Source: Promethearchaeota archaeon | GTDB taxonomy: Archaea; Asgardarchaeota; Thorarchaeia; Thorarchaeales; Thorarchaeaceae | Length of the DNA: 9,188 bases | Direction of reading: 5' to 3' | Assembly: GCA_027031765.1 (NCBI GenBank) | Contig: JALVPN010000200.1 | Coordinates: 1-9,188, forward strand | In this document: piece after piece, positions 1 to 9,188 of the stretch | How positions within the stretch are numbered: position 1 is the first letter of the stretch | Layout: the number at the start of each line of letters is the position of its first letter | Made by a program: the position numbers and the translations under genes | Notes under the pieces: model-generated | What the model was told of the DNA's origin: nothing | The model's input: only the letters and a program-made list of their open reading frames with translations | Database searches by the model: none

Positions 1-1
1 T

Positions 2-547
2 ATGAAGTCTGCTAGGGTATCGCACCTGAGGCTTGAAGATGTCCGTGTGCCGCCAGGACAGGTGCTCGGCGAGCCCGGCCAGGGCTTCCAGATCCTGATG
101 GACGAGCTCGACAGCGAACGGACAGCCATCGCAGCCGAGGCCATTGGGTACGCCCGGACACCATACGAGATTGCAGTACGGTATGCGGCGGAACGACAGC
201 AGTTCGGGCGCCCAATCAGGATGTTCGAGGGTGTGAGCTTCAAGATTGCCGATATGGCCGTGAAGCTGGAGGCGGCGCGTGCACTGACCCTCACCGCAGC
301 ACGGATGCTCGACAGGGGTCTCAAGGCCACAAAACAGGCCTCCATTGCCAAGCTCTTTGCCACTGAGGCCGCCATCCAGATGACCAATGACGCCCTCCAG
401 GTCCTCGGTGGTGTCGGCTATACGACAGAGTACCCCATCGAGAGGTTCCTCAGGGATGCACGCCTCATGACCATTGGCGGCGGTACCGCCGAGATACTGC
501 GCTTCCTCATACAGAGGGAGGTCTACCGGGAGTTCTTTCCCAAGTGA
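2..547 (+). CDS. Acyl-CoA dehydrogenase, C-terminal part (5'-truncated by window edge)
   Basis: ACAD motifs in the translation: LEDVRVP...LGEPGQGF, YAAERQQFGRPI, VSFKIADM, ASIAKLFATE, ALQVLGGVGY, ERFLRDARLMTIGGGTAEI. The Met at 2 is internal by homology. Stop TGA at 545-547. Confidence 0.96.
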   Translation: MKSARVSHLRLEDVRVPPGQVLGEPGQGFQILMDELDSERTAIAAEAIGYARTPYEIAVRYAAERQQFGRPIRMFEGVSFKIADMAVKLEAARALTLTAARMLDRGLKATKQASIAKLFATEAAIQMTNDALQVLGGVGYTTEYPIERFLRDARLMTIGGGTAEILRFLIQREVYREFFPK

Positions 548-549
548 AC

Positions 550-582
550 TGGGGCCCTCTGAGAGAGGACAGGACAGCCCCA
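550..582 (+). terminator. GC-rich hairpin just after the ACAD stop (possible 3' end structure)
   Basis: TGGGGC 550-555 pairs with GCCCCA 577-582 and encloses CCTCT 556-560 / AGAGG 564-568. No U-tract follows. Confidence 0.35.
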
Positions 583-838
583 CTCAGTAGCACCGGGGGC
601 GGTCACACGGCAGTGGCCCGGGTGGTCGTAGTGGGGGCACGGTCAGGACAGGCATGCCCCTGAGCATCACCGGTCACAGTATTATTGCATGCACTTGTCC
701 ATCCATTCGACAGCCAAGGGTCGCGGAGTGGGTCAACACCGCGTCACGTATACCCTTCATGTCGCATCCATGAACGGATGCTGTCTGCCCCATCCGGACG
801 GGTGGACAGCCTGTGTTGCCGGCTCGGTATCTCAATGC

Positions 839-844
839 TTAATA
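839..844 (+). promoter_or_regulatory. Candidate archaeal TATA box (TTAATA) for the longin-like gene
   Basis: AT-rich hexamer in a GC-rich context, about 28-37 nt upstream of the GTG starts at 872/881. Confidence 0.45.
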
Positions 845-880
845 GCGGCGTGAGGACTGGTGGGCAGTGGTGTGTTCTCA

Positions 881-1441
881 GTGACAAAGATCGAGTACCT
901 GATGGTCTACACTCATGGCGGCCTCCCTATCTACAGCAAATGTTTCGGACACTTCTGCCAGACCGCATTCAAGAACCCCGAGTTGTTGACCGGCCTACTT
1001 TCCGCCCTCGAGTCAATCCCTCCGACCCTTGGTGACGGCCTGTCTCTTGAAGCCGTGAAGATGGGCTACACGACAATGCGGTTCTCAAAGGTCATGCCCG
1101 GTGGTCAGTCCGTCGTGATCGGGCTGTCTGAGGACGACCTTGCCACGGCGGAGGCCGTGTTCAATGGTGTCAAGCAGCTGTTCGAGCTTGACAAGTTCAA
1201 AGACGTAGACTGGGGTTACGTCCGCCGTGATATCGTGGACGCGTTCACCCAGGAGCTGGTCGACAGGGTACTTGTGGACGTAATGCACGAGAGGGGTGGC
1301 TTCCACGACGAGTGCCCCTTGGGTGACATGTGCCCGATGCACACGCGGGCCGACACTGCGGACAGCCGTGGGATCTGGAGTATCATCCGGTCAAAGTATG
1401 ACGAGTTGCGGCGCAGGATGCGGGCAAAAATGGGGGAGTGA
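881..1441 (+). CDS. Longin-fold-like protein (Asgard eukaryotic-signature type) with C-terminal Cys/His extension, 186 aa; alternative GTG starts at 872 and 860
   Basis: Segment order fits the longin beta-beta-alpha-beta-beta-beta-alpha-alpha fold: IEYLMVYT-HGG-LPIYSKCF, NPELLTGLLSALESI, LEAVKM, TMRFSKV, SVVIGLS, LATAEAVFNGVKQLF, VDAFTQELVDRVL. The N-terminus resembles the 'I..l.I...gGl.iy.k.f' start of TRAPP/AP-sigma-type longins. GGTG at 869-872 could be an RBS for 881. Recognised by eye only. Confidence 0.72.
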   Translation: MTKIEYLMVYTHGGLPIYSKCFGHFCQTAFKNPELLTGLLSALESIPPTLGDGLSLEAVKMGYTTMRFSKVMPGGQSVVIGLSEDDLATAEAVFNGVKQLFELDKFKDVDWGYVRRDIVDAFTQELVDRVLVDVMHERGGFHDECPLGDMCPMHTRADTADSRGIWSIIRSKYDELRRRMRAKMGE

Positions 1442-1515: not shown

Positions 1516-3288
1516 TCAGAGCACCTCAAAGGCGACAATCCTGTACTCGTCGTCCATCTGCTGGAGCACGGCGTGGAAGCCGTCGCCAACACGTACAGAC
1601 AGCAGCTCGTACCAGTCATCAAGAGGCATCCACTCCCTCGTGCCCTCAATCCACTCGTACGTGGAGTTGTCTGTCCGGAGGACAATGTGGGTGTCACCCT
1701 CGTACACGTAGGAGCTGATATTGAGGACGGTTGCACTGAGCTCCACGGTACCTGTTGAGGGGTGGAGTGCATCCCTCACGGTCTGGACGTACCCCTCACG
1801 CACCTGTCTCACAAGGACCTCCCCCGTGACCGTGCCCCCACGTGTGAGCAGGTACTTTATCGTGGGGTCTTGCGCGTCGGCGATGGCGAAGGCGTGGAGC
1901 CGGATGTCAGTGATATAGTACTCTTCTGCGTCCGAGTCATAGTAGCCGTCGTACCAGTAGATTGGGCAGTACCATGCGTAGCGCATGACCCCCGGTGCTA
2001 TCTCGACCGGGTACAGCAGCGGCATGGCCCCAAAGTACGACCCGGAGGTCGGGTTCGGGAGCCCCTTTATGACCTCGTTGGTTGCAGCCTCACCGCTGAT
2101 CAGTGTTCCATTCGGAAAGGTGTGGAAGAATATCCCATCACGAGTGGCACGCATGATCCCGCTCAGGGTCAGGCTCGTTGACTCCGGTGGGTTCACCGCT
2201 ACAAGTGCCTCGACCCGCCCGTTGTCGGGGTTGATTATGTACCTCGTGTCCTCCGTCATCTCGAGCCTGTCCCTTGACGGCTGGACGACCCACAGGAAGC
2301 CCCCTGCGAACAGGTCGAAGCCGTCACCGCGTCTGTAGGCGCCCCACCTGTTGACCTGGCGTTCCAGCCACTCTTCACTGTAGACCTGTGAAACCCACGT
2401 TGGCGTTTCCTCTATGGTCGCATATCTCCTGACAGTGCCGTTCGAGCAGTATATCACCGGGCCCAGTGGCCGTTCCACCAGGTCCCAACCAATACTGGTC
2501 CTTGTCTGGATGTATACAAGGTTCCCCGCGGGGTCCCATGTCGGGTAGGCATACTCGTACAGCTCTGTCATGTCATTGAGGTAGTTCCTGAAGTGTATGT
2601 TCTGGTCCCAGAACAGGCCCTCCCCGGGCATCGTTGTCGGGATGTCCTCTATCACTTCTATCATCGCGGGGTCGTTCGCATCGACGACAACGAGGCTCTG
2701 GATGTAGTTCTCGGCCAGCACATTGGTGGAGACGACCACGCAGACCCAGACCAGCCGCCCATTCCGTGTCGTTATGTGGGTCGCGGCCACCTCGACATTG
2801 GAGCCTATCCCTGCAAAGTACTGTCTCGCAACAAAGGCCGCGTACTCGCCGGTGACCAGTCGTACCATGTTGTCTGGTATCGGACTGTTGAACAGTGGCT
2901 CGTCGGTCACCGTGATGAACGTGTCCACTGACTCGGCATTGGAGAGGCCTGATGTCCAGACAGCGATGCTCGTGAATGTCGGCAGTGTGACAATCATGAC
3001 CATTGCCACGCACATCACCGGGGTCTTGAAGTGCCTCAGGGAGGGTGGTCTCTTGCGTGGCATCCCGCTTATCAACAGCAGTACCATCCATCCATAGGCA
3101 AGCCCTACCACAGCCCACGGCAGTGTGGTCATTGTGGCCACAGTGGTCAGGGCCCAGACCAGCACCGCCCACAGCAACCTCAACGGCAACCAACGGATCA
3201 GCCGGCCAAAGCTCAGCATCCCGTCCTGATACGGGAACGGCATGCTGTACACGACAATGCAGACGAGGAGAAACAGTAGCATGTTCAA
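1516..3288 (-). CDS. Uncharacterised membrane-anchored protein, 590 aa: about 4 N-terminal TM helices and a large extracytoplasmic domain
   Basis: Long ORF with a TTG start 7 nt after GGAGG (3300..3296); an in-frame ATG at 3282 is an alternative. The first ~112 aa are hydrophobic, with a basic loop (PRKRPPSLRHFK) before the last TM. Four N-x-S/T sequons in the soluble part (NGT twice, NIS, NST). Confidence 0.88.
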   Translation of the reverse strand: MNMLLFLLVCIVVYSMPFPYQDGMLSFGRLIRWLPLRLLWAVLVWALTTVATMTTLPWAVVGLAYGWMVLLLISGMPRKRPPSLRHFKTPVMCVAMVMIVTLPTFTSIAVWTSGLSNAESVDTFITVTDEPLFNSPIPDNMVRLVTGEYAAFVARQYFAGIGSNVEVAATHITTRNGRLVWVCVVVSTNVLAENYIQSLVVVDANDPAMIEVIEDIPTTMPGEGLFWDQNIHFRNYLNDMTELYEYAYPTWDPAGNLVYIQTRTSIGWDLVERPLGPVIYCSNGTVRRYATIEETPTWVSQVYSEEWLERQVNRWGAYRRGDGFDLFAGGFLWVVQPSRDRLEMTEDTRYIINPDNGRVEALVAVNPPESTSLTLSGIMRATRDGIFFHTFPNGTLISGEAATNEVIKGLPNPTSGSYFGAMPLLYPVEIAPGVMRYAWYCPIYWYDGYYDSDAEEYYITDIRLHAFAIADAQDPTIKYLLTRGGTVTGEVLVRQVREGYVQTVRDALHPSTGTVELSATVLNISSYVYEGDTHIVLRTDNSTYEWIEGTREWMPLDDWYELLSVRVGDGFHAVLQQMDDEYRIVAFEVL

Positions 3289-3520: not shown

Positions 3521-4060
3521 TCAGTCGGTGCCCTCCTCTATGGCCTCCCAGTCCATGCCGCCGTCGGCAACGAACTTCTCGACTGCCCCGCCAGCTCTGA
3601 GGAGCCCCATCAGGAACGGTGGGAGCGGTTCGAACTCCAACGGTTCGCCCGTTTCCACGACGACCGCATACCCTTTCTCAGGGTGGACTTCAAGTTCTGC
3701 ACCCTCTGCCACCAGGGGTGCTGAGTAGTGCAGTGCAAAGGCCGGCAGGCCCACATTGATGGCGTTCCTGAAGAATATCCTTGAGAACGTCTCGGCGATG
3801 ACGCACGATATCCCGAGCTCACGGAGCACCATCGGGGCCTCCTCCCTCGAAGACCCGCTGCCGAAGTCCCGTCCTGCAAGGATGATGTCACCACGCCTGA
3901 CCTCGGACGCAAAGTCGGGTCTCAATGGCTCCATTGCGTGCCTTGCCATCTCCGAGTAGTCCAGTATTGTGAGGTAACGGCCGGGGATGATCTGGTCGGT
4001 GTCCACATTGTCACCGAAGAGCCAGACCCGGCCACGGAGCACATGCAGGTCCCTCATCAC
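3521..4060 (-). CDS. leuD: 3-isopropylmalate dehydratase / homoaconitase family small subunit (archaeal-type LeuD/HacB), 179 aa
   Basis: GRVWLFGDNVDTDQIIPGRYL, AGRDFGSGSSREEAP, VIAETFSRIFFRNAINVGLP. GTG start at 4060 overlaps the leuC stop (GTGA); ATG at 4057 is an alternative. GGAG RBS at 4070..4067. Family is secure, substrate is not. Confidence 0.92.
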   Translation of the reverse strand: MMRDLHVLRGRVWLFGDNVDTDQIIPGRYLTILDYSEMARHAMEPLRPDFASEVRRGDIILAGRDFGSGSSREEAPMVLRELGISCVIAETFSRIFFRNAINVGLPAFALHYSAPLVAEGAELEVHPEKGYAVVVETGEPLEFEPLPPFLMGLLRAGGAVEKFVADGGMDWEAIEEGTD

Positions 4061-5325
4061 ACCACACTCCTGGGGTCTGTTATCTTCCCTGTGACTGCGC
4101 TGGCGGCCACAGTCGCCGGCGATGCCAGGTACACCTGTGACTCCCTGTCCCCCATCCGTCCCCTGAAGTTCCGGTTGGAAGTGGAGATGCAGACCTCATT
4201 CCCGGCCAGCACGCCGAGGTGTCCACCCACGCAGGCACCACAGGTCGGGTTCGTGACCACAGCCCCAGCCTCTGTGAGGGCCTCGATGTAGCCGGCCCTG
4301 AGGGCCTCCAGATAGACCTCTCTGCTCGCTGGCGTGACGATGAACCGCACACTGCGGTGCACCCTGTGTCCCTCCATCACCTGCGCGGCAAGTGCTATGT
4401 CCTCGAGCCTGCCATTGGTACAGGAGCCGAGGAAGGCCTGGTCTATCCGTATCCCCTCGTAGACGGAGACCGGGCGCACGTTGGTGGGGAGGTATGGCCC
4501 CGCCACCATGGGCCCCAGCTCCTCCTCAGACAGGTCTATCCTCATCACCCTGTAGTACTCGGCGTCCTCGTCCGGCTCAACAGCGTCCCAGTCCGCCCCC
4601 GGGGCCCTCCGTTTGAGCCACTCCCGCACGGCATCGTTCACACCCATCATTGCCGTCTTTGCCCCCGCCTCCACGGACATGTTGCACGTGGTCATCCGGG
4701 AGGCCACGCTCATCCTGTCCACCAGCCCTCCGTGGAACTCCACCGCCATGTAGTTGGCCCCATCAGTACCGAGCTCTCCGATGACCCGCAGGATGAGGTC
4801 CTTGCTGGTCACCATCTCGGGGAACTCCCCCTCTATCTCAACACGGATGCTCTCTGGCACCCTGAACCAGCACTTGCCGGTGGCAATTATCACTGCGGAG
4901 TCAGTGGCCGCAAGACCCGTTGCAAAGGCATTGAACGCACCATACGTATTGGTATGGGAGTCACAGCCTACGATGAGCTCGCCAGGTCGTGCCAGCCCCG
5001 CCTCAGGTAGCACCTGATGGCATATCCCCTTTCCCACGTCAAAGAAGTGGGGGATGCCGTGTTCGCTGACAAACTGGCGGTTGCGGCGGTGGATCACTGC
5101 GCTCCTGATGTCCGGTGCCGGCGCCCAGTGGTCGTTGACGACAACAATGTCCTCCGGGTCCCAGACCCGCGTGACGCCCATCCTGTCGAGCAGTGGGATG
5201 ACACGGGAACCGAGCACCTCGTGCACCATCAGCCTGTCCACCCTCGCGACTATGAACTTGCCCGGACGGACAGTCCCCCGTACAACGTGGGACTCCAGGA
5301 CCTTCTCGGCCATCGTCTGTCCCAA
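4057..5325 (-). CDS. leuC: 3-isopropylmalate dehydratase / homoaconitase family large subunit (LeuC/HacA), 422 aa
   Basis: TTG start at 5325 gives the canonical MGQTMAEKVL N-terminus, 6 nt after GGGTGAT. Motifs DHWAP, GICHQV, GCDSHT, and the three [4Fe-4S] cysteines in FLGSCTNGR and PTCGACVG, plus STSNRNFRGRMG and YLASPA. The ORF-track extension to 5514 overlaps leuB and is rejected. Confidence 0.93.
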   Translation of the reverse strand: MGQTMAEKVLESHVVRGTVRPGKFIVARVDRLMVHEVLGSRVIPLLDRMGVTRVWDPEDIVVVNDHWAPAPDIRSAVIHRRNRQFVSEHGIPHFFDVGKGICHQVLPEAGLARPGELIVGCDSHTNTYGAFNAFATGLAATDSAVIIATGKCWFRVPESIRVEIEGEFPEMVTSKDLILRVIGELGTDGANYMAVEFHGGLVDRMSVASRMTTCNMSVEAGAKTAMMGVNDAVREWLKRRAPGADWDAVEPDEDAEYYRVMRIDLSEEELGPMVAGPYLPTNVRPVSVYEGIRIDQAFLGSCTNGRLEDIALAAQVMEGHRVHRSVRFIVTPASREVYLEALRAGYIEALTEAGAVVTNPTCGACVGGHLGVLAGNEVCISTSNRNFRGRMGDRESQVYLASPATVAASAVTGKITDPRSVV

Positions 5326-5332
5326 GACAGCA

Positions 5333-6490
5333 TCACCCTTCAACCAGCACTGACACCCTCTCCGCAATGGCACGACCAACAGCACTGGTGCTTGAGGGCT
5401 GTACTGCAGCCCACGGCCCCCTGCACAGGTCTGCAGTCCTGACCTGCCCTTCGCGGAGGACATCGGCCACTGCGCGTTCGACAGTTTCAGCAGCATCCCA
5501 GCATGACCTGTCACCGTGTCGGTCGCCCAGCCAGCGGAGCATCATTGATGTGGCGAGGACTGCGGCCACAGGGTTGGCGGTGCCCTGGCCGGCATGACGC
5601 GGTGCTGACCCATGGACTGGTTCGAATACACCATGCCCGTCCCCTATGTTGGCCGCGGGTGCCACACCCAGGCCGCCCTGTATGGCCGCACCAAGGTCTG
5701 TGATGATGTCACCAAAGGCGTTGGGGGCAACAACCACATCGTAGAACTGGGGCCTGCGCAGACACCACTGTGTCCATGCGTCGACGTATGCATAGTCCAC
5801 AGACACACCGGGGTACTCTCCTGCCACCTCGTCGAAGACCCGTCGGAAGAGCTGGCAGCCTGCGAGCAGGTTGCTCTTGTCAACACATGTCACGCGCCGG
5901 ACGCCGTCCAGTGGCGCACCGTTTCTCTCCATGCTCAGCCTGAACGCCTTTCTGATGACCCTCAGGGCCCCATGGCGGGTGATCACTCGCGTGTCTATTG
6001 CTATCTCCTCGACACCGCCCCTCTTCATTATCCCCCGTGTCGGTGTATATAGCCCCTCTGTGTTCTCCCTGACTATCACCATGTCGATGTCCTTGTGTGT
6101 GACCCCATAGAGCGGTGTTGGCACGCCCTCGAAGAGCCTTACTGGGCGGACGTTCGCGTAGAGGTCCAGGCCAAAACGGAGCCCGAGGACAATGTTATAC
6201 CCGGCAAGGTTCCCGTCCGGGAGGCGCACTGGCTGTCCGGACGCGTCCTCGGCACCCACAGCACCCAGGAGCACTGCGTCCGCCTGGCGCTTTGTGAACT
6301 CCTCCGCCTCCTCTGTCCACTCCTTTCCAGTCCTCACATAGTACTGGCCGCCACACTCGAACTCGTGCACCTGGAACTCTGCCCCCCGGAGTGCGTCCTG
6401 TGCAGCACGCAGCACACGCAGCGCCTCAGTCACGACCTCCGGGCCAATCCCGTCACCCGGGAGCACCGAGATGCGGTATGTCCTGGTCAC
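5333..6490 (-). CDS. leuB: Isocitrate/isopropylmalate (beta-decarboxylating) dehydrogenase family protein, LeuB-like, 385 aa
   Basis: LPGDGIGPEV, LRFGLDLYANVRP, VRENTEGLY, VDKSN, NAFGDIITD, FEPVHGSAP. GTG at 6490 lies 6 nt after GGTG (6500..6497); alternative starts at 6499 and 6496. Family is secure, substrate and cofactor are not. Confidence 0.9.
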   Translation of the reverse strand: MTRTYRISVLPGDGIGPEVVTEALRVLRAAQDALRGAEFQVHEFECGGQYYVRTGKEWTEEAEEFTKRQADAVLLGAVGAEDASGQPVRLPDGNLAGYNIVLGLRFGLDLYANVRPVRLFEGVPTPLYGVTHKDIDMVIVRENTEGLYTPTRGIMKRGGVEEIAIDTRVITRHGALRVIRKAFRLSMERNGAPLDGVRRVTCVDKSNLLAGCQLFRRVFDEVAGEYPGVSVDYAYVDAWTQWCLRRPQFYDVVVAPNAFGDIITDLGAAIQGGLGVAPAANIGDGHGVFEPVHGSAPRHAGQGTANPVAAVLATSMMLRWLGDRHGDRSCWDAAETVERAVADVLREGQVRTADLCRGPWAAVQPSSTSAVGRAIAERVSVLVEG

Positions 6491-6499
6491 CCGCACCAC

Positions 6500-6882: not shown

Positions 6883-6896
6883 TCGTAGTGGGGCAC

Positions 6897-7835
6897 ATGC
6901 GTCTGATAACATACTCCCGGCTTGGGGTCCCATCCATTGGTGTCGAACTGGATGGGGGCGTGCTCGATATTCCCGAGGCCGCCTCCTACTTTGGGAGGCG
7001 GTACCATGTCCATGGTCACAGCTTCCCACGTACCATGCTCGACCTCTTGGACTGGGACGCTGGAGTGTCCGTTGTCCGTCAGATACTCGACCGCTACCTC
7101 TCTGCTGGTCCTGATGGGCGTCCAATGGTGTACCCATGGTCTGACATCCGCCTCGAGGCACCTGTCCCACGTCCACGCAAGGTCGTCGGTCTGGGCCTCA
7201 ACTACCGTGACCACGTAGAAGAGGCCGGTCTGGAAGTGCCAGAGTTCCCAGTCATCTTCGCAAAGTTCCCGTCAAGTGTGGTCGGTCCCGACGCGGACAT
7301 CGAGCTGCCGGAAGTGACGCGGGCCCTCGACTGGGAGGTGGAGCTCGGGGTCGTGATTGGACGTACATGCAGACGGGTATCCGAGTCAGACGCACTCGAC
7401 TACGTGGCAGGCTACACGGTGGTCAACGACCTCACGGCCCGCGACCTGCAGGCCAGCGATGGTGGTCAGTGGGTGCGTGGCAAGTCCCTTGACGGCCTCT
7501 GTCCCATGGGCCCGTGCATTGTCACTGTCGACGAGCTGGGTGATGGCTCCGGCCTGAAGATGTACACCAAAGTAAATGGTGTGGTCAAACAGGAGTCGAA
7601 CACCGCCAACATGATGTTCAGCGTCCCACAGATCGTATCCTACCTCTCACACTCTTTCACTCTTGAGCCCGGCGACGTGATTGCCACGGGGACGCCCTCG
7701 GGTGTAGGGTACAGGCAGAGCCCTCCCGAGTACCTGCAACCAGGGGACTCGGTCGAGCTCTACATTGAGCGGATTGGGCACCTCCGGAACCGTATCGTCG
7801 CACCTGCAGGCCCTAGTCTGGCCCAGCGTAAGTGA
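6897..7835 (+). CDS. Fumarylacetoacetate hydrolase (FAH) superfamily protein, FAHD/HpcE-like, 312 aa
   Basis: MRLITY start; PRKVVGLGLNYRDHVEE (lid H-x2-E), PVIFAK, DWEVEL (two metal Glu), NDLTARD (metal Asp), GKSLDG, GDVIATGTPSGVG. Alternative GTG start at 6888. Confidence 0.94.
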   Translation: MRLITYSRLGVPSIGVELDGGVLDIPEAASYFGRRYHVHGHSFPRTMLDLLDWDAGVSVVRQILDRYLSAGPDGRPMVYPWSDIRLEAPVPRPRKVVGLGLNYRDHVEEAGLEVPEFPVIFAKFPSSVVGPDADIELPEVTRALDWEVELGVVIGRTCRRVSESDALDYVAGYTVVNDLTARDLQASDGGQWVRGKSLDGLCPMGPCIVTVDELGDGSGLKMYTKVNGVVKQESNTANMMFSVPQIVSYLSHSFTLEPGDVIATGTPSGVGYRQSPPEYLQPGDSVELYIERIGHLRNRIVAPAGPSLAQRK

Positions 7836-9188
7836 CCCTGATGGTCTGCCCCCTCTTGAACACTCCCGCCACCTGCGTCACCTCGCCTGTCAGGGGCGTT
7901 GCAGACACCTCCCCCTCGTCACTCCTGACACTGGTGAGCGTCATGCCGGGCCCGTGCACCACGAAGAGCCGCTCCACGCCCCGTGAGCCCCTCGCCATGA
8001 CAATTTCAAGCTCGCCCTGTGTGCCGTGCCATGTTTCCCGTTCAATCTCGACAGCACCCTGTGTGAAGTGCATCGTTGTGCCTACAAGCGATGGGTGTGG
8101 CCTCTCCGGACGCAACGACAGCAGCCGGCACGAGTGGGGTGCAACGTCCTCCAGGGTGACCTCCGACTCTGACAGGCCGAGGTACTGTGAGTCCCAAAAC
8201 TCGAAGGTATGCTGCGGCCCCTCCAGGCCTAGGTCATCAAGGTCAAGGGTTACGTCACGGGCCCTGTCTGTGGTATTGACCGCAGCGACAATGGCCCAGC
8301 TCCCACATGCGGTCTCCACCCTCTGGTAGAGGCACGTGGGCTCGTCCGTGTCGAACATGTCCGGCGAGGACGCGCCATGTCCATAAGGCGGCAGTATCTT
8401 CTCCAACACCCTGAGCCCATCGTCGTCCAGCCTGCTGATGCGGTCACCCAGGACGACGACTCCCCCGCTCATTGCCACCACCGAGAGCCAGAGCCGCGTC
8501 TCGTCGGGGGTCAGAGAGTTATTGTCACCACTCACGAGGACTGCGTCCGGACAGCACAGCCACAGTCTGCCGTTGACACTCGACTGCACAAGGGTACTCA
8601 CTACCTTCTCACGTATCCCGCCTCCCCACTCGTCAGCCCACACAGGGATGGTCTCACGGCTGCCATAGACCACGTCCACAAGCCCAGTGCATATCCCCAC
8701 TGGTGCCCTGCTTGCCATCACCAGTGCGTCACCAACCGCAGCCCTGATTGTCTCAAGGCCTGTCCTCAGGGCCTCTGCTGGGGCCCGCGACATGTCGTGG
8801 CGTCTGCCGGCTACCATGGCATCTGCAAGGTAGTCTACCTTGAACAGGTCGTAGCCGTCCTCAACAAGCCCTCTGAACACGCTGTCGATGTGTCCCAGTA
8901 CCCGGGGGTGTGTGAGGTCGAGTGCATAGTAGTCACCCAACCAGAGCGCCTCCGAACCCGCGACCACAGGTCTGTTGTCATCGTCCCTGACGAACCAGTC
9001 CGGGTGGTCCCTGAACAGTGCTGACCTGCGGGACGCGACAAAGGGCGCAAGCCAGATCCCGGGACGCAGCCCGTGCCGTCTGACCATTGTTGCAAGCTGG
9101 CCGAGGCCCCCTCTGAAACGGGGCCCAGCAGTCCAGTCGCCCACGGCGGCCTCGTAGCCGTCCTCAACGAGTACCCACCCCACACGAC
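7813..9188 (-). CDS. GH36 (clan GH-D) alpha-galactosidase-like protein with divergent active-site motifs, 5'-truncated by window edge
   Basis: Frame is open to the window edge. It resembles Thermotoga-type GalA: VEDGYE..VGDW, PGIWLAPF, FRDHPDW, YALDLTHP, GYDLFKVDYL, GLETIRAAVG, RLW..PD, followed by a GH27/36-type C-terminal beta-sandwich. Stop TAG at 7815..7813 gives a 23-nt convergent overlap with the FAH gene. Confidence 0.88.
   Translation of the reverse strand, partial: RVGWVLVEDGYEAAVGDWTAGPRFRGGLGQLATMVRRHGLRPGIWLAPFVASRRSALFRDHPDWFVRDDDNRPVVAGSEALWLGDYYALDLTHPRVLGHIDSVFRGLVEDGYDLFKVDYLADAMVAGRRHDMSRAPAEALRTGLETIRAAVGDALVMASRAPVGICTGLVDVVYGSRETIPVWADEWGGGIREKVVSTLVQSSVNGRLWLCCPDAVLVSGDNNSLTPDETRLWLSVVAMSGGVVVLGDRISRLDDDGLRVLEKILPPYGHGASSPDMFDTDEPTCLYQRVETACGSWAIVAAVNTTDRARDVTLDLDDLGLEGPQHTFEFWDSQYLGLSESEVTLEDVAPHSCRLLSLRPERPHPSLVGTTMHFTQGAVEIERETWHGTQGELEIVMARGSRGVERLFVVHGPGMTLTSVRSDEGEVSATPLTGEVTQVAGVFKRGQTIRVTYAGPD

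Follow-up and report, generated by a model that had tools for sequence, protein, structure and literature searches.

The DNA analysed here (9,188 nucleotides, hereafter the window) is one entire contig, C200, of a Thorarchaeota-like Asgard genome; the host assembly (2.95 Mb in 229 contigs, 95% complete) was obtained from a hydrothermal vent metagenome. Two convergent genes occupy the end of the window: a fumarylacetoacetate hydrolase (FAH) family gene on the plus strand at 6888..7835 (Pfam match E = 9e-79), and on the minus strand, at 7813..9188, the C-terminal part of a GH36-like gene (ORF 7813..9186, open off the contig end), their 3' ends overlapping by 23 nt (7813-7835). According to the ORF and its translation, this C-terminal part consists of 457 codons and a stop, and spans barrel strands beta2-beta8, followed by a pair of C-terminal beta domains. 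The N-terminal part, the first 320 codons, was found in the same genome on contig C80 (positions 1-960, minus strand). The full gene, whose recovery the first-pass annotation had proposed, could thus be assembled as a 774-aa GH36 protein encoded by 774 codons with zero stops. The ends of C200 and C80 have 11 nt (ccccacacgac) and the peptide RVG in common. The stretch was found in a single sequencing run, a DNA run of a hydrothermal vent metagenome, and in no RNA run; the Logan contigs of this run matched it with no differing letters and were fragmented, with a word depth of only 3-9, which explains the splitting of the GH36 gene over two contigs. The last matching Logan contig ended at the same base as the window, and the join of the two contigs was made on the end overlap and the gene order.

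On the joined contigs the genes were ordered as ACAD, two ORFs without Pfam match, a LeuD/LeuC/LeuB-like cluster, a small ORF, FAH, GH36, two successive TPR genes and two conserved ORFs. This order was collinear with that of two relatives on both sides of GH36, that is, on both contigs, and across the archaeal family GH36 is flanked by FAH and a LeuC-like gene. The FAH neighbour was therefore used by us as a synteny anchor as well as a rate control. Neither a second GH36 copy nor a GH27 was found in the genome, giving a GH36 copy number of 1. Together with the syntenic flanks, this indicates that the gene is the orthologue itself and not a spare paralogue, and the idea that a canonical second GH36 or GH27 copy had freed this gene to change was rejected.

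Sequence homology assigns the protein to GH36 (clan GH-D) of the T. maritima GalA (TmGalA) type. It matched Pfam PF02065 (Melibiase) with 41.3 bits against a cut-off of 27, the match to Melibiase_C being weak, and phmmer against the PDB aligned it to TmGalA (1zy9, 5m0x) with E = 2e-35. The extent of Pfam coverage was considered as a discriminator and turned out to be uninformative, since canonical orthologues match Melibiase over the same short span. The AF2 model had a pLDDT of 94.3 and a pTM of 0.92, a confidence driven by the canonical homologues that made up the alignment behind it. A Foldseek search with this model returned the TmGalA and TtGalA structures as top matches (TmGalA E = 8e-23, rmsd 2.7 A over ~308 columns). 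The predicted fold is a (beta/alpha)8 barrel flanked by beta-sandwich domains, which is the GH36 architecture. TmGalA (PDB 1ZY9, 5M0X, 5M12, 6GVD), in which the barrel and beta-sandwich are likewise present, was thus the best match in both sequence and fold; our protein exceeds it by ~220 aa, having a larger N-domain and one more beta domain at the C-terminus, as the archaeal orthologues do. For the N-terminal piece no usable PDB match was found, and the numbering of W190 and Y191 was accordingly taken via a canonical orthologue. The TmGalA numbering given in the first-pass annotation, with D327 as nucleophile, R383, and D387 as acid/base, was right, provided that the 1zy9 chain is counted with its 12-residue tag.

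The closest database proteins are of ~765 aa, are labelled alpha-galactosidase, come from Candidatus Thorarchaeota and other Asgard archaea, and reach at most 45% identity. No match above 45% identity was found in 5.8 billion clusters, and none above 42% in 1.84 billion representatives. The canonical archaeal orthologues (for example P0003 and P0005, Candidatus Thorarchaeota, labelled alpha-galactosidase) occupy the same locus, have 763-795 aa and the same domain order, and share with our protein the C-terminal HFTQGAVE motif and 38-45% identity over the window part. In contrast to our protein, none of their catalytic or galactose-binding motifs is altered, and they match TmGalA with E = 1e-63.

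In TmGalA, D327 acts as nucleophile and D387 as acid/base (PMC5132143, PMC6089974). The published ligand contacts are D387 to the glycosidic O and O2, R383 to O2 and O3, Y191 to O3, K325 to O3 and O4, D220 to O4 and D221 to O6, with W257 making a weak contact to O4 and stacking, and W190 stacking (PMC5132143). The corresponding positions on the minus strand of the window show a mixture of kept and changed residues. At 9154..9168 VEDGY stands for IDDAY (TmGalA I219-Y223), where Glu (9163-9165) replaces D220 and D221 is kept (9160-9162). The motif GIWLAPF (9040..9060) keeps W257 of the hydrophobic platform (9052-9054). In FKVDYL (8827..8844) both K325 (8839-8841) and the nucleophile D327 (8833-8835) are kept; the KVD motif, residues 116-118 of the window ORF, therefore still reads K-x-D, and its flanks are conservatively altered (I to V, F to Y). 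MASRAP (8701..8718) takes the place of LGCGAP/LGCGSP, with C368S (8710-8712) and G369R (8707-8709), each codon being one nucleotide from the canonical one. VYGSRET (8650..8670) takes that of MRIG(P/T)D(T/I), with R383Y (8665-8667), P386R (8656-8658) and D387E (8653-8655), so that the acid/base Asp and its partner Arg, R-x-x-x-D in the canonical motif, are replaced by Y-G-S-R-E. Finally, WLCCPD (8545..8562) stands for W(L/I)NDPD; it keeps D427 and has a vicinal Cys pair, N424C/D425C (8551-8556), for which two nucleotide changes are needed in each codon.

Outside the window, on contig C80, GWCSWY reads VWSTWH, which gives Y191H, and the N-domain motif NGFxSW, invariant in the archaeal family, reads LPRSTA. 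These two changes add to the list in the first-pass annotation, whose own readings (IDDAY to VEDGY, KIDFL to KVDYL with the nucleophile retained, LGCGSP to MASRAP, MRIGPDT to VYGSRET with the acid/base Asp changed to Glu, and WLNDPD to WLCCPD) were all reproduced in the phmmer alignment to TmGalA. Of the nine published ligand contacts, four are altered (Y191H, D220E, R383Y, D387E), which leaves the galactose-contact set of W190, Y191, D220, D221, W257, K325 and R383 incomplete at Y191, D220 and R383; W190, D221, W257, K325 and D327 are kept. Compensated frameshifts were considered as a source of the odd motifs and rejected, as the other frames contained no canonical motif and the codons differed by point changes. 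Both lost Asp residues, D220 and D387, became Glu; the chance of this at two sites under random single-step replacement is ~6%, which is suggestive only.

We then asked how widespread the changed residues are. Among the 25 orthologues of the archaeal family that were read (19 from related genomes and six added), DDGY, KIDF, MRIGxD and ND(P/G)D were kept in 25/25, and NGFxSW, GWCSWY and GCGAP were also kept, bar slight drift in two copies from genus g6. In an alignment of 224 wider homologues, including 150 representatives from the library of 1.84 billion, our protein was alone in having Glu at D220, Tyr at R383, Glu at D387 and Cys at N424/D425. The D220 position was Asp in 212 of the 224 homologues, and the R383 and D387 positions were Arg and Asp in 220 each; all three were canonical in 19/19 orthologues. 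Closer relatives with the same residues were found neither in the 5.8 billion clusters or the 1.84 billion representatives nor in the 85 family genomes. A conserved clade defined by these substitutions, which the first-pass annotation had put forward as a check of its reading, was thus absent from the 25 orthologues and 224 homologues, and the changes belong to a single genome. The nucleophile D327 was Asp in 224/224 homologues, some of which have Ala as their acid/base residue, so its retention is no proof of catalysis. The two genus-g6 copies, L035 (G063:C140) and L036 (G058:C5), showed partial drift (GWTSWY/GWSSWP and IVGSGAP/ILACGAP), and retained R383, D387, D220 and N424/D425. Genus g6 has mostly lost GalT, and judged by their motifs these copies may represent an intermediate stage of motif drift.

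The rate of change was next compared between GH36 and its FAH neighbour. GH36 identity was 35% between this genome and its relatives and 50% among the relatives, whereas for FAH the corresponding values were 64% and 62%. In the maximum likelihood trees the terminal branch of GH36 measured 1.61, against 0.36-0.72 for single-genus tips, and was about 3-4x longer than those of relatives, while that of FAH (0.19, against 0.22-0.55) was typical. Both trees placed this genome beside L016 and L003, which speaks for vertical inheritance at an increased rate; for the same reason, replacement by a horizontally acquired foreign gene was not favoured. All four domains were accelerated (identity ratio 0.65-0.81), the barrel being the fastest, a pattern that also fits a general relaxation.

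The changes were not evenly spread over the conserved positions. Near-invariant columns were kept in 96 of 144 cases, compared with 90-100% in other family members, and the altered ones were over-represented close to the nine published contacts (within 2-4 residues; odds ratio 3.5-4.4, p = 0.002-0.004). About 40% of the invariant residues near the pocket were kept; away from it the figure was 85/117 (73%) with windows set by the published contacts, and 80/100 (80%) with wider motif windows. In the latter, 28 of 44 columns were altered near the pocket against 20 of 100 elsewhere, a comparison whose windows were partly picked with the changes already in view. The more conserved a column, the better the protein agreed with the consensus of the family, up to a plateau of 62% at columns at least 95% conserved; there, family members kept 96-99%, and an order-level homologue whose variable sites are more divergent still kept 84%. 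The lower plateau in the less divergent protein fits an altered function-specific constraint and not mere age. The first-pass annotation had named changes unique to this genome under relaxed selection as the outcome that would speak against it; the uniqueness was indeed found, but the relaxation was partial: strong around the pocket, mild in the scaffold.

The main new context for these changes is the apparent absence of galT and galK, the genes through which alpha-galactoside catabolism would be coupled to the Leloir pathway. The galactokinase signature PF10509 had no match in this 95%-complete genome and matched in 16/16 sampled relatives, and GalT (PF01087), likewise without a match here, was matched in 14 of the 16. 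In the relatives, galT sits directly upstream of galK, whose 385-aa product passes the TIGR00131 galactokinase cut-off, and the genomes of the canonical orthologues mostly carry the pair. A tblastn search of this genome with the relatives' GalT and GalK recovered only a distant GHMP kinase. Moreover, at C55:14007-16769 the genes that flank galT-galK in relatives (L033, G014:C51; L034, G001:C1) adjoin, with no room for the pair. The evidence for a deletion at this place is good but not conclusive, as gene order varies somewhat between the two relatives compared, and the two genes could reside in the 5% that this 229-contig assembly, at 3-9x, is missing.

Across the 85 family genomes, GH36 was found in 42 and is thus often lost. 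Both GH36 and GalT were present in 37 genomes, neither in 34, GH36 only in five and GalT only in nine, counts that are inflated by shared ancestry and incomplete MAGs. Most likely, GH36 feeds galactose to GalK and GalT in this family, and genomes without the pathway have usually lost GH36 as well. The co-distribution thereby places the canonical orthologues, so far annotated only automatically, in a functional context. In one genome (G052, C4:82309-83551) GH36 was split into two adjacent frames and is likely a pseudogene, and in another (G007:C57:13948-16522) GalT was in two pieces with an internal TAA. Since galT and galK were not found in our genome, its GH36 enzyme has probably given up its former task and been retained for another.

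We consider that the protein is a TmGalA-type orthologue released from alpha-galactosidase duty and still under selection as an altered enzyme or binder, an explanation that in our judgement has an even chance of being correct. On this explanation, selection for galactoside hydrolysis would have lapsed in this lineage, in whose genome galT-galK was not found. The -1 sugar pocket would have been rebuilt at the O2/O3/O4 binders R383, Y191 and D220, at the acid/base D387 and in the second shell (C368, G369, N424, D425), while the full-length, folded, three-domain protein would have stayed under purifying selection. Judged from its sequence, the protein is then predicted to be no longer an efficient alpha-galactosidase and to be kept for another ligand. 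We lean towards a retaining glycosidase or transglycosidase whose substrate sugar is unlike galactose at C2-C4, with D435 (equivalent to D327) as the proposed nucleophile and E495 as the proposed acid/base; R477, from an adjoining strand, may replace R383. The paired Asp-to-Glu changes and the new Arg residues on strands adjacent to the lost R383 make us lean slightly toward a working pocket, but we give nearly the same likelihood to a protein that only binds sugar and does not catalyse. In its most specific form, this would be a GH36 with a new -1 subsite, a Glu acid/base, an Arg supplied by another strand (G369R or P386R), a Cys pair in the pocket and a non-galactose sugar, possibly anionic or modified at C2-C4, in an Asgard archaeon that has ceased to run the Leloir pathway; so detailed a picture is tentative, and we regard it as somewhat improbable. 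Several points count against the explanation as a whole. The new residues occur in no close relative, which places dN/dS on the new state beyond reach, and the frequent loss of GH36 in the family, with the split copy in G052, is a further one.

A precedent for such a change within clan GH-D is provided by the GH27 beta-L-arabinopyranosidases (SaArap27A, GsAbp, CpArap27 and Arabidopsis APSE), in which replacement of one conserved pocket Asp by a bulkier Glu, Ile or Tyr switches the alpha-galactosidase scaffold to another sugar (PMC4598101, PMC5853685). Our protein likewise carries Glu in place of one Asp of its DD pair; PMC4598101/PMC5853685 do not state which of the two is switched in GH27, so that the parallel is no more than a lead, and in TmGalA D220 binds O4 and D221 binds O6. 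Unlike our protein, the GH27 enzymes retain the Arg and have Asp as acid/base, and differ at one or few positions.

Alternatively, hydrolysis may have been lost and the scaffold retained for a role other than catalysis, such as the binding of a sugar or another ligand, regulation or structural partnership. This possibility deserves serious weight, though we hold it to be less than probable. Besides the acid/base, three more of the published substrate contacts are altered, and in TmGalA the D387A mutation alone costs ~3100-fold in kcat/Km (PMC5132143/PMC6089974, the TmGalA structure papers). The loss of NGFxSW, the failure to find the partners galT and galK, the conserved scaffold and the intact ORF would all be expected of such a protein. 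However, the lost Asp residues did not become neutral and were both replaced by Glu, K325, D327, D221, W190 and W257 were kept, and the gene context points to no partner or binding function. In GH18 chi-lectins the fold and a polar pocket remain after loss of the ancestral activity, and the catalytic carboxylate is lost outright; in our protein, by comparison, both catalytic positions still carry carboxylates.

The protein could also be a relic drifting toward loss after the galactose pathway had gone, and caught before its frame was broken. We think this unlikely, although the changes are confined to one genome, every domain is accelerated, the gene is repeatedly missing in the family or split, as in G052, and early motif drift (GWSSWP, IVGSGAP) is seen in the GalT-poor genus g6. 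Given a stop/nonsynonymous neighbour ratio of 0.041, more than 10 stops would be expected, together with frameshifts, if the excess changes were neutral; no stop was seen in the 774 codons, and internal indels did not exceed 2 aa. The invariant scaffold was kept at 73-80%, and the climb of agreement with column conservation described above speaks in the same direction. Polar effects cannot account for the open frame, as GH36 is the last gene in its transcription direction and lies tail-to-tail with FAH. Pure decay is therefore unlikely on these sequence grounds, in agreement with the first-pass annotation. Its broader reading stood with respect to the intact ORF, the TmGalA fold match and the retained nucleophile, and did not stand with respect to a conserved clade.

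Much less probable, in our view, is an ordinary alpha-galactosidase in which backbone shifts let E495, Y491, R494 and R477 restore the canonical geometry. The fold, the nucleophile, K325, D221 and both Trp are kept, carboxylates occupy both altered Asp positions, and the new Arg residues lie on adjacent strands; still, the same states occur in no other of the 224 homologues, 4/9 direct contacts differ, and the genes to use released galactose were not found. Lastly, an assembly artefact, with a contig of the low-coverage MAG being chimeric or full of errors, is suggested by the depth of 3-9x and by the spread of the gene over two contigs. It is hardly credible when independent Logan contigs agree letter for letter, dozens of codons are substituted in frame, and the neighbouring genes on the two contigs show ordinary identity and gene order.

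Returning to the preferred explanation, a TmGalA-type orthologue released from its old duty and still under selection, the gene has been neither deleted nor broken; its scaffold is conserved, and its sugar pocket and acid/base have been rewritten. As the ancestral state is fixed by dozens of syntenic orthologues, the case, which rests on one low-coverage genome from a hydrothermal vent metagenome, shows a possible fate of an enzyme gene whose pathway has disappeared. An active protein would widen the specificities known for GH36 and show a Glu acid/base to be workable in clan GH-D; an inactive one would represent an unusually clear birth of a pseudoenzyme without duplication in an Asgard archaeon. 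Should the new-subsite form of the explanation hold, a new specificity or chemistry in clan GH-D would have been born from an orthologue, again without gene duplication.

Two further features were noticed elsewhere in the window. An ORF of 590 aa without Pfam match lies at 1516-3288 (minus strand), and has counterparts of 53-56% identity at the same position in two relatives. The LeuD/LeuC/LeuB-like cluster at 3521-6499 (minus strand) encodes aconitase small and large subunits and an isopropylmalate/isocitrate dehydrogenase family protein. Its LeuC-like ORF, as listed, has 485 aa and overlaps the upstream gene by ~180 nt; relatives match it only from about residue 60, and these two observations suggest that its true start probably lies further downstream.
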